Below are positions 11,639 to 60,082 of a stretch of DNA of 64,000 nucleotides, in pieces. The stretch spans positions 288,001-352,000 of the forward strand of contig JAOZFT010000004.1 in NCBI GenBank assembly GCA_027492035.1. Direction: 5' to 3'. Made by a program: the position numbers and the translations under genes. The stretch comes from Thermoproteota archaeon (lineage in GTDB: Archaea; Korarchaeota; JAOZGF01; JAOZFZ01). Positions within the stretch are counted from its first letter, which is position 1. Each line of letters opens with the position of its first letter. The notes below the pieces were generated by a model. The model searched no databases, was not told where the DNA came from, and was given only the letters and a program-made list of their open reading frames with translations.

Positions 11639-11830
11639 ATGAAACTAGCTGAAATTAAAAAACTATCCAAGGAGGAGCGTAAGAAGAAATTGAAACAGCT
11701 AAAAGAAGATCTTTGGAACCTTAGGATTCAACAAAAAGCTGCAGGTACTCTAGAGAATCCCTCCGCAATTAAGACTCTGAAAAGAGACATAGCAAGGTTA
11801 CTAACTCTGTTGAGGGAAGAAGAAAGGTGA
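11639..11830 (+). CDS. rpl29: 50S ribosomal protein uL29
   Basis: LENPSAIKTLKRDIARLLT. Confidence 0.95.
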   Translation: MKLAEIKKLSKEERKKKLKQLKEDLWNLRIQQKAAGTLENPSAIKTLKRDIARLLTLLREEER

Positions 11831-12114
11831 TAACCCAAAAAAACATTTACTACCATGAATTGATAGGTTTAGAGGTTGAAATAACAAATTCAACCAATCC
11901 TTCCTTAATAAAGAGAAAAGGGAAGGTAATTTTTGAAACCAGGAACATGTTGTTTATAAGTGATTCCGCTAAACCATCAAAAGAAATTAAAATCCCGAAA
12001 GCTATTTGTTGCTTTAGGTTTAAGCTGCCTTCCGAAAAGGAGGTTGAAGTGAAGGGGGATCTTTTGGTTGGAAGACCTGAAAAAAGACTTAAATGTAAGA
12101 GAGTGAGGAAATGA
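11827..12114 (+). CDS. rnp1: RNase P protein component 1 (Rpp29/Pop4)
   Basis: HELIGLEV, GKVIFETRNM, LVGRPEKRLK; canonical position in operon. Confidence 0.93.
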   Translation: MITQKNIYYHELIGLEVEITNSTNPSLIKRKGKVIFETRNMLFISDSAKPSKEIKIPKAICCFRFKLPSEKEVEVKGDLLVGRPEKRLKCKRVRK

Positions 12115-27869: not shown

Positions 27870-27942
27870 AGCCCCGTGGTGTAGCGGTCAAGCATGACGG
27901 ACTTTGGATCCGTCGACCTCGGTTCGAATCCGAGCGGGGCTA
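27870..27942 (+). tRNA. tRNA-Gln(TTG)
   Basis: AGCCCCG/CGGGGCT acceptor, ACGGA-CT TTG GA-TCCGT, TTCGAAT. Confidence 0.95.
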
Positions 27943-27947
27943 TAAAA

Positions 27948-28068
27948 GGGCCCGTGGCTTAGCCTGGCTGGAGCGCTTGCCTTATAACGACGTTTATCGT
28001 CTTTTGAAGGCGGCGTTTTCCTTTCATGAGAAAGCAAGAGGTCGCGGGTTCGAATCCCGCCGGGCCCA
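27948..28068 (+). tRNA. tRNA-Ile(TAT) with 46-nt 37/38 intron (27987-28032)
   Basis: GGGCCCG acceptor and T arm match tRNA-Ile(GAT) at 42206; CTTGC-CT TAT A|..|A-GCAAG; helix CUUA/UGAG plus AA|A bulge. Confidence 0.85.
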
Positions 28069-28163
28069 TATGTTTCTTTACTTTCCTGAGGAATATGTTT
28101 CCAAGGAAAAGTTTAAATATTTCTTTGTGGAATTTAGAAGTAATTTTTGGGTTGTTAACATGC

Positions 28164-28238
28164 AGCGGGGTGGGGAAGTCAGGTTATCCCGCGGGGCTCA
28201 TAACCCCGAGGTCGGTGGTTCAAATCCACCCCCCGCTA
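28164..28238 (+). tRNA. Initiator tRNA-Met(CAT)
   Basis: A1:U72, consecutive G-C pairs in anticodon stem, CT CAT AA. Confidence 0.95.
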
Positions 28239-29372: not shown

Positions 29373-29664
29373 GCCAAGTTGGCTGTAATCCGCCTTCTAT
29401 TTATAGTTGGCATTCAACTGAGCGGATTGTTCCCTTCGCTGCAAGTCCTCATAAGGGCCTCCAATCCTTAGGCTTCAAGCACAGCCGTTTCACTAAATCT
29501 TACGGGGTCTTCTGGAAGTCCACTTCCTTCATCACCACCTCCCGTAAGGTATATCGTTTCTGTGCTGGAGGAGGTTTCTCAACCTGTGCCTTTCGGCACC
29601 TTGAACTTGCAGACGCCGGCGGATTTCTTCAGTGCATAGACCGTAAGCCAACCGCCAACTTGGC
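29373..29664 (-). ncRNA. rnpB: RNase P RNA (type A-like, atypical P4)
   Basis: P1 GCCAAGUUGGC/GCCAACUUGGC, P2 GUUGGC/GCCAAC, P4 AAUCCGCC/GGCGGAUU, P6 CUGCAAGU/ACUUGCAG, P8 and P9 GNRA hairpins, ACAGAAAC and GUGAAACGG, P15 GGAUUG/CAAUCC. Confidence 0.88.
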
Positions 29665-29669
29665 TTCCA

Positions 29670-29703
29670 AGCAAATGCTCCTTTACGCTAGGTTTATGCT
29701 GCT
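29670..29703 (-). other. 3' strand of 23S processing stem (BHB with 32768-32801)
   Basis: AGCAGCAUAAACCUA-GCGU-AAA-GGAGCAUUUGCU pairs with AGCAAAUGCUCC-ACGU-UAA-UAGGUUUAUGCUGCU. Confidence 0.9.
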
Positions 29704-29708
29704 GGTTT

Positions 29709-32762
<3,054 letters not shown>

Positions 32763-32959
32763 TCCCTAGCAGCATAAACCTATTAACGTGGAGCATTTGC
32801 TCGGCATCACAGGTTACTTTCAACCTTCGCCCTTCGCCTTAAAGAAGAGACTCTTTAAGGCTGCATCAAGGAGTAATAACAAAGAATAAACTAAAACAAC
32901 TTTAATACGTGTTGTATAAGGAGAGATAGAATGGAGGTTCTTAGTGCAAAGTGGCTTAT

Positions 32960-34449
<1,490 letters not shown>

Positions 34450-35855: not shown

Positions 35856-35954
35856 GCCGCCGTAGCTCAGCCGGTAGAGCGAGGGACTTGTAATCCCTTG
35901 GTCGAGGGTTCAAAAACCTGTGTGTTTCCCAGGTTGGGAATCCCTCCGGCGGCT
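35856..35954 (+). tRNA. tRNA-Thr(TGT) with 26-nt T-loop intron (about 35914-35939)
   Basis: GCCGCCG/CGGCGGC, U73, AGGGA-CT TGT AA-TCCCT; hairpin AACCTG/CAGGTT inserted in TTCAA|AT. Confidence 0.9.
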
Positions 35955-42205: not shown

Positions 42206-42299
<94 letters not shown>

Positions 42300-52036: not shown

Positions 52037-52169
52037 GGTGGGGTTAACGGCCATAGAAGCTAAGGAAACACCTGATCCCATTCCGAACTCAGAAGTTAAG
52101 CTTAGCTTCGTTTACTTCGGTACTGCGCTCCGAGAGGGCGTGGGAAAAAGTAAAGCTGTTAACCCCACC
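52037..52169 (+). rRNA. rrf: 5S rRNA (span includes extended terminal helix)
   Basis: GGCCATAG..ACACCTGATCCCATTCCGAACTCAGAAGTTAAG; GGTGGGGTTAAC/GTTAACCCCACC closing stem. Confidence 0.95.
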
Positions 52170-59670: not shown

Positions 59671-59993
59671 GGAGAGACAGGGGATAGGTAGGGGGCTCGG
59701 GGTCCCCTGAACCGTAAACCCTCGAAACGACGGGCCGAATGCTGCTGCGGTGAATCCTTCGCCTGTACAAAGCATCAGCTTAGGAGAAATGAAAACAGTC
59801 ACCCTTGGGGGCAGCGGAGCTAACCCAGTTTCCGGAGGGAAACAAAAGGGTTAGTTGAGCTGAGGGGAAAAAGCCAGGCCTGGAAAGGAGCAACTTAAAC
59901 CCTCTAACGCTGCCGCTCAAGGGAGAGGCTGCAGATCTCCAAGTTGATGCCGAGTGCAGCTGAAGGTTTTGCTGCAGTAGAATCCCCTGCTCC
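59671..59993 (+). ncRNA. ffs: SRP (7S) RNA
   Basis: Helix 8 CCAGGCCTGGAAAGGAGCAA, helix 6 GGAG loop, Alu domain, terminal CAGGGGAT/ATCCCCTG. Confidence 0.93.
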
Positions 59994-59997
59994 AAAA

Positions 59998-60082
59998 GCC
60001 GGGGTACTCCAGCCAGGTAGGAGGCGGGCCTGCTAAGCCCGTGGCTCTTGGAGCCTCGTGGGTTCAAATCCCACCCCCGGCG
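59998..60082 (+). tRNA. tRNA-Ser(GCT)
   Basis: CGGGC-CT GCT AA-GCCCG, long variable arm, G73. Confidence 0.95.

Follow-up and report, generated by a model that had tools for sequence, protein, structure and literature searches.

The stretch of DNA analysed here, referred to as the window, comprises 64,000 nucleotides of a Thermoproteota archaeon (GTDB lineage Archaea; Korarchaeota; JAOZGF01; JAOZFZ01; assembly GCA_027492035.1, contig JAOZFT010000004.1, positions 288,001 to 352,000) and carries a gene for the RNA of ribonuclease P (RNase P) in which helix P4 is predicted to be continuous. In RNA-based RNase P and RNase MRP, the bulged uridine of P4 is described as universal (PMC3488217, PMC4919922, PMC10966300). 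Comparison of the window with related genomes makes it probable, at about 70%, that the gene encodes a genuine RNase P RNA, the only one that the organism has, and that this RNA is the catalytic subunit of a normal holoenzyme (with the proteins Rpp29, Rpp21, Pop5 and Rpp30) whose P4 has been remodelled to an uninterrupted helix.

The RNase P RNA gene is 290 nt long and lies on the minus strand at 29374..29663. It is the sole real match of the genome to the archaeal type A model and aligns with the model over its full length (cmscan on the window, RF00373 RNaseP_arch, model positions 1-288 of 288), scoring 151.8 bits (gathering score, 84) with an E value of 5.7e-43. Conserved region I (CR-I; GAAGAAAUCCGCC, RNA positions 34-46, 29618..29630, minus strand) is 1 nt shorter than the family consensus GAGGAAAgUCCcCC, and the alignment places the difference in a single deleted column (GAAGAAA-UCCGCC). 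The 5' strand of P4 (AAUCCGCC, RNA 39-46, 29618..29625, minus) is exactly complementary to the 3' strand (GGCGGAUU, RNA 270-277, 29387..29394, minus), which gives eight contiguous Watson-Crick pairs with no spare nucleotide. Within the 5' strand, only U41 (29623) could correspond to the conserved uridine, and it stands opposite A275 (29389). CR-V and the 3' strand of P4 (AUAGAAGGCGGAUUAC) together keep the consensus length. A preliminary description made from the letters of the window alone had reported a short CR-I and a P4 of eight uninterrupted pairs, and it had proposed an Infernal alignment to the archaeal model as a check. That alignment confirms the one-column deletion in CR-I and, with the exact complementarity of the strands, bears out the continuous helix; the description was correct except for the strand of the gene, which is the minus strand.

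Other parts of the RNA depart from the model to a varying degree. CR-II (ACAGAAACGA), CR-III (GUGAAACGG) and CR-IV (AGUUGAAUGCC) match the upper-case consensus columns, while CR-V begins with AUAGAA (29395..29400, minus) in place of the near-invariant ACAGAA, and GAAGAA replaces GAGGAA in CR-I (29625-29630). The preliminary description had also noted a minimal P3, the lack of a GGU next to P15 and good pairing in the other helices; the first two points hold, and the third largely so. P3 is a short hairpin (29630..29643, minus) of about 4 predicted pairs, with 2 non-standard pairs flagged. Pairing prevails in the other helices, although 8 non-standard pairs are marked by cmscan in the RNA as a whole. 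In the P15/P16 arm (29424..29467, minus), the 3' side of the loop reads GGGAACAAUCC (29424-29434), which has no GGU and contains two deleted columns. The absent GGU was rejected as a notable feature: it is unremarkable because none of the three tRNA genes examined encodes CCA and because the archaeal holoenzyme does not require the RCCA sequence (PMC6565675).

The shortening of CR-I is shared by the relatives of the window's genome. This genome (G000; 1.87 Mb in 42 contigs, 93% complete) forms an order with G001, which belongs to the same family (94% complete), and G002, which belongs to the same order (71% complete); there was no further genome labelled as the same class among the genomes examined. 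The same single deletion is seen by cmscan in G001 (GAAGAAAC-CCGUC) and in G002 (GAGGAAAC-CCGUC). Among 30 sequences compared, the spacer from [AG]GAA to the CC core of P4 is 2 nt in all three genomes of the order versus 3 nt in each of the 26 further RNAs from the phylum and in one metagenome relative. Since the three RNAs have diverged at many other sites, they count as independent observations. G001 alone shares the AUAGAA of the window's RNA and also reads GAAGAA; G002 has the usual letters at both sites. A pattern scan of genome contigs returned only the two known relatives, and a 33-nt pattern specific to the lineage had no match in metagenome contigs. A looser, gapped version of the pattern matched four metagenome loci, only one of which (L040, 190.7 bits) has an RNase P RNA, and that RNA has a standard P4 with a bulged U.

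Pairing within P4 was compared for alternative registers of the two strands in the three sequences of the order. The continuous 8-bp register pairs 23 of 24 cells, with two-sided changes at two of its pairs. One of these is the focal pair, which is U-A in G000, C-G in G001 and C opposite A in G002. The extra, bulged uridine that RF00373 has in the 5' strand of P4 is missing from all three RNAs, whose CR-I is 1 nt short. When a pyrimidine is left bulged, the apposition beside the bulge becomes A·A, A·G and A·A, which is a standard pair in none of the three, and the best slid register pairs 50% or less of the cells. Co-folding of the isolated strands gives eight contiguous pairs in G000 (-13.2 kcal/mol) and G001 (-13.1 kcal/mol), and RNAalifold applied to the three full sequences predicts the same continuous 8-bp P4 de novo. 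Over the whole RNA, 26 of 81 predicted pairs show compensatory, two-sided changes among the three genomes, a pattern of covariation typical of a functional RNA under selection.

The protein subunits of the enzyme are encoded as well. The Rpp29 gene lies where the preliminary description had placed it (11827..12096, plus strand; PF01868, E 9.1e-23), and G000 encodes Rpp29, Rpp21, Pop5 and Rpp30 with open frames and scores above the Pfam cut-offs. Across the order, Pop5, Rpp21 and Rpp30 are each present in all three genomes, although the Rpp30 copy of G002 is cut by a contig end; Rpp29 was found in two of the three and not in the 71% complete G002. A whole-genome search with RF00373 (E <= 10) found only the copy in the window and a 7.4-bit chance match; a bacterial-type RNA should also have surfaced, as the same search matches bacterial control genomes. 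The type T RNA (RF02357) was found in none of the three genomes at E <= 1. HARP, a protein-only RNase P of about 200 aa, belongs to the PIN_5 family (PF08745; PMC6380272, PMC9945441), for which no match in the three genomes rose above the cut-off; the best scores were 10 bits in G000 and 16.9 bits in G001, and G002 had no match. The 16.9-bit match was ruled out as HARP because it is the E subunit of an ATP synthase. The preliminary description had offered two explanations for the continuous helix, a variant active site or a repurposed or non-catalytic paralog, and had predicted for the latter a second rnpB or a HARP elsewhere in the genome. Neither was found in this search. The variant active site is supported by the full length of the RNA, its covariation in three genomes, its position as the sole RNase P RNA of a 93% complete genome and the four proteins. 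With no alternative RNase P found, the four proteins encoded and 26 of 81 pairs compensated, the data appear to be best explained by a functional RNase P, the only one present, whose active-site helix is remodelled.

In this account, CR-I has lost one nucleotide in the order from the interval that separates the conserved AA from the CC of P4; we take this nucleotide to be the equivalent of position 68 in E. coli. The normally bulged pyrimidine, presumably E. coli U69, would now face position 358. The 3' strand has kept its length, and the formerly bulged pyrimidine would close the gap and make P4 a continuous helix of eight pairs. In conventional enzymes, the catalytic metal M1 is described as bound in its inner sphere by O4 of the uridine and by phosphates of the two nucleotides before it, a role for the uridine that all current models of the mechanism adopt (PMC3488217, PMC4919922, PMC10966300). 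The remodelled enzyme would still cleave pre-tRNA by the usual two-metal chemistry, with the M1 Mg2+ coordinated chiefly by P4 backbone phosphates and the substrate, and with protein cofactors making up part of the loss. Pop5-Rpp30 is known to speed cleavage (PMC6565675). The predicted parallel is with engineered mutants that lack the uridine or carry C in its place and retain about one tenth of the wild-type activity in the holoenzyme: the U52C change in Thermotoga maritima and deletion of the uridine in an archaeal holoenzyme each lower activity about 13-fold, and the uridine has been termed 'critical but not essential' (PMC3488217). The literature searched, which did not extend to subscription papers and supplements, contained only statements that the uridine is universal, and none of it was found to report a naturally occurring RNase P RNA that lacks the bulged uridine.

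Several observations weigh against a remodelled P4 in a working enzyme, and some of them would fit a bulge that is present but cryptic. The covariation in P4 is not significant with three sequences (94 of 500 shuffles reach the observed score), the isolated strands of G002 co-fold to a 5-bp core only, and the focal C opposite A in that genome, which is not a standard pair, indicates that pairing at this position is not universal in the lineage. Rpp29, one of the four proteins, was not found in G002. It is conceivable that the focal pair opens on substrate binding or that P4 takes the register with a bulged pyrimidine, in which case the chemistry would be canonical. With that register 21 of 24 cells remain paired, but an A·A or A·G apposition has to be accepted; the absence of a standard pair beside the bulge in any of the three RNAs speaks against it, as does the higher count of the continuous register. 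Published structures, including that of yeast RNase P, show the uridine rotating into the active site only upon substrate binding (PMC10966300, PMC8450104), and a weak U-A pair could therefore open in a similar manner. Next to the focal pair of G000, on the side of the 5' strand, lie two A-U pairs, which form a weak stretch, and the U-A pair of P4 is invariant in the ten RNAs of a second lineage described below, as expected if U is still needed. On the other hand, the focal base is C in both G001 and G002, so that the O4 ligand is gone from two of the three genomes in any register, and the double change from U-A to C-G looks like selection for pairing. A cryptic bulge, the main rival reading, is for these reasons considered unlikely.

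The remaining explanations concern the identity of the RNA and the quality of its sequence. The RNA might have decayed or been repurposed, with 5' maturation of tRNA passing to a second rnpB, a HARP or some other protein. The description of the bulged uridine as a universal, direct ligand of the catalytic metal (PMC3488217, PMC4919922, PMC10966300) would agree with loss of function, as would the further departures in CR-I, CR-V, L15 and P3. The genomes, moreover, are incomplete (93%, 94% and 71%), and a second gene could lie on DNA missing from the assemblies of G000 or G002. A decayed RNA is difficult to reconcile with CR-II, CR-III and CR-IV that match the consensus, with the compensatory changes in its helices, with a set of four protein subunits in open frames and with a bulge-less state kept across two families; together with the empty searches for a second RNase P RNA and, in all three genomes, for a HARP, these make such decay or repurposing very improbable. 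Loss of one base from CR-I through a sequencing or assembly error would be easiest to imagine in a draft genome of 42 contigs, but the same 1-nt shortening occurs in two independently assembled relatives that have diverged elsewhere in the RNA, the 3' strand carries the matching A (G in G001), and the difference from the consensus is not an indel within a homopolymer. An artefact at this site has next to no likelihood, and the deletion in CR-I is not an assembly error.

The remodelled helix of the window's lineage was placed in a wider context by a survey of 129 archaeal RNase P RNAs from 128 genomes. The set consists of 29 sequences from the phylum and 100 of the 101 matches outside it, which were drawn from 108 genomes; a truncated match in G049 was left out, and L040 and seven extra genomes of the second lineage stand outside the tally. 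P4 was classified by a heuristic anchor-locked test, in which 16 same-domain matches below the gathering score may be mis-parsed; cmscan alignments agree with the assigned class in all nine cases checked. A bulged U was found in a fully paired P4 in 91 of the 129 RNAs and in a P4 with one mismatch in a further 26. There was no bulge in six (G000, G001 and G002; G095, G116 and G051), a bulged A in two (G067 and G103) and a bulged C in two (G124 and G106), and two were not parsed (G115 and G062, both among the matches below the gathering score). The statement in the preliminary description that the bulged U is conserved in RNase P thus needs to be softened, since 12 of the 129 archaeal RNAs were not parsed as having one. 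The bulged-A RNAs (L060 of G067 and L062 of G103, from two families; GAGGAAACACCG) and the bulged-C RNAs (L085 of G124, GAGGAAAUCCCACC, and L109 of G106, a weak match) have a CR-I of normal length. CR-I is also of normal length in family f3, where 22 of 23 RNAs (for example L047 of G005), like L101 of G094, have strands GGUCCGCC/GGCGGACU that can alternatively pair over eight contiguous positions, the U being matched with A. In the standard register of these RNAs a G·A mismatch adjoins the bulged U, and co-folding favours the continuous form.

The second bulge-less lineage is the class of G095, which is unrelated to the lineage of the window and has small genomes (0.6-1.0 Mb). An RNase P RNA was found in 10 of its 13 genomes that are at least 70% complete, and P4 is continuous in all ten (L152-L161: G095, G151, G116, G159, G157, G152, G153, G158, G156 and G051), which speaks for the viability of a P4 of this design. 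The helix is AAAUCNNN/NNNGAUUU. Its continuous register pairs 80 of 80 cells, compared with 64 of 80 for the bulged register and 68.8% or less for the best slid register. Three pairs of P4 change on both sides, and none of 500 shuffles reaches the covariation score. Pop5 is encoded in 12 of the 13 genomes. As in the RNA of G000, P4 is an uninterrupted helix of 8 bp with the conserved U in a U-A pair, but in the class of G095 the partner of the U is the fifth nucleotide of the 3' strand rather than the sixth, one position nearer to ACAGAA than in G000. In this class CR-I is unchanged in length as far as the U, with the shortening located 3' of that point, and the U-A pair is invariant, whereas the focal pair varies in the lineage of the window. 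As the partner of the U is one position apart, the bulge has been closed in different ways in the two lineages. The proposal that RNase Ps working without the 'universal' bulged uridine exist naturally, and have arisen at least twice in Archaea through two different collapses of the P4 bulge, is tentative and is held here with somewhat less than even confidence. As judged from the sequences, the 'universal' uridine does have natural exceptions.

Two further observations were made in the class of G095. G051 (L146/L162/L165) has a second RNase P RNA match on a contig of 5.6 kb (C34), which scores 62 bits, below the gathering score, and has a P4 with a bulged U; two Pop5 matches are present in the same genome. 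The second RNA match may represent a paralog or a contaminant of the bin. Partial matches to PIN_5 occur in 10 of the 13 genomes, six of them above the cut-off, and cover only about model positions 155-193. The one examined of the ten, in G153 (L163, 467-901, plus strand), was rejected as a HARP; it is a PIN_6 protein of 144 aa with a Cys-rich C-terminal tail and looks like archaeal Nob1.

The RNase P RNA gene of the window lies downstream of the 16S rRNA gene (32961-34449, minus; RF01959) and the 23S rRNA gene (29696-32778, minus; RF02540) and is read in the same direction. A 32-nt spacer (29664..29695, minus) separates it from the 23S gene and contains the 3' strand of the 23S processing stem: the stretch upstream of the 23S gene (CCGAGCAAAUGCUCC...UUUAUGCUGCU, 32779-32830) is complementary to the 3' end of the 23S gene and the spacer (AGCAGCAUAAA...GGAGCAUUUGCUUGG). 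Judging by the complementarity of these flanks, 3 nt separate the end of the stem from the start of the RNase P RNA. No obvious promoter box was seen when the spacer was inspected by eye. The gene looks like the last one of a 16S-23S-rnpB operon, from whose transcript the RNase P RNA would probably be released. The RNase P RNA lies 30-137 nt downstream of the 23S gene in five of six phylum loci checked (L003, L013, L022, L024 and L027, from families f1-f5), the exception being L005 (genus g4).

Other genes for structural RNAs occur in the window. Two tRNA genes on the plus strand (27870-27942 and 27948-28068) are 5 nt apart, and an endonuclease must therefore make the 5' end of the second tRNA, which shows that the organism needs an activity of the RNase P kind. 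The span of the second gene, 121 nt, indicates a long intron. Three tRNA genes in all occupy 27870-28238, with CCA encoded in none. Weak, partial tRNA matches at 35863-35921 and 42229-42291 (31 bits, model positions 8-63) were not called by ARAGORN. The 5S rRNA gene (52043-52164) is unlinked to the rRNA operon, and a signal recognition particle RNA gene (59676-59991) is followed after 6 nt by a tRNA-Ser gene (59998-60082).

If the remodelled P4 does belong to a working RNase P, the C found at the focal position in two of the three genomes would mean that the O4 ligand of the catalytic Mg2+ is dispensable, with the metal held by phosphates alone or with the help of Pop5-Rpp30. The lineage of the window may thus provide a natural test of how essential the bulged uridine is. 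Natural RNAs that lack the bulge, and in two genomes the uridine as well, would offer a ready-made means of separating the contributions of the base, the backbone phosphates and the proteins to catalysis. The findings also show that covariance models and lists of the 'universal core' that are based on cultured organisms miss real variation in uncultured archaea.

Among known systems, the RNA of the window most resembles archaeal type A RNase P RNA (RF00373). The P4 bulge is the one defining feature in which it does not agree with that type among all those tested. It has helices P1-P5, P7-P12 and P15/16, CR-II to CR-V can be identified, P4 forms its pseudoknot of eight pairs, and the same four proteins are encoded. 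It differs from type A in that CR-I is 1 nt short, P4 has no bulge, GAAGAA and AUAGAA stand in for the usual letters, L15 lacks GGU and P3 is short. Type T RNA of Pyrobaculum-like organisms (RF02357) is also an archaeal departure from the standard RNA. Type T has lost most of the specificity domain, whereas the RNA of the window keeps the whole architecture and has lost the P4 bulge alone, and RF02357 matches none of the three genomes of the order. HARP, the natural candidate for a back-up enzyme in the event of an inactive RNA, was found in none of these three genomes either. A further likeness is to engineered RNAs in which the bulged uridine or its O4 is missing, namely T. maritima U52C and the archaeal uridine deletion, both of which still work at an activity about 13-fold lower in the holoenzyme (PMC3488217). 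Those mutants are laboratory constructs in which the 3' strand is unchanged, whereas the loss in the lineage of the window is natural and fixed, and it is accompanied by a complementary base in the 3' strand.
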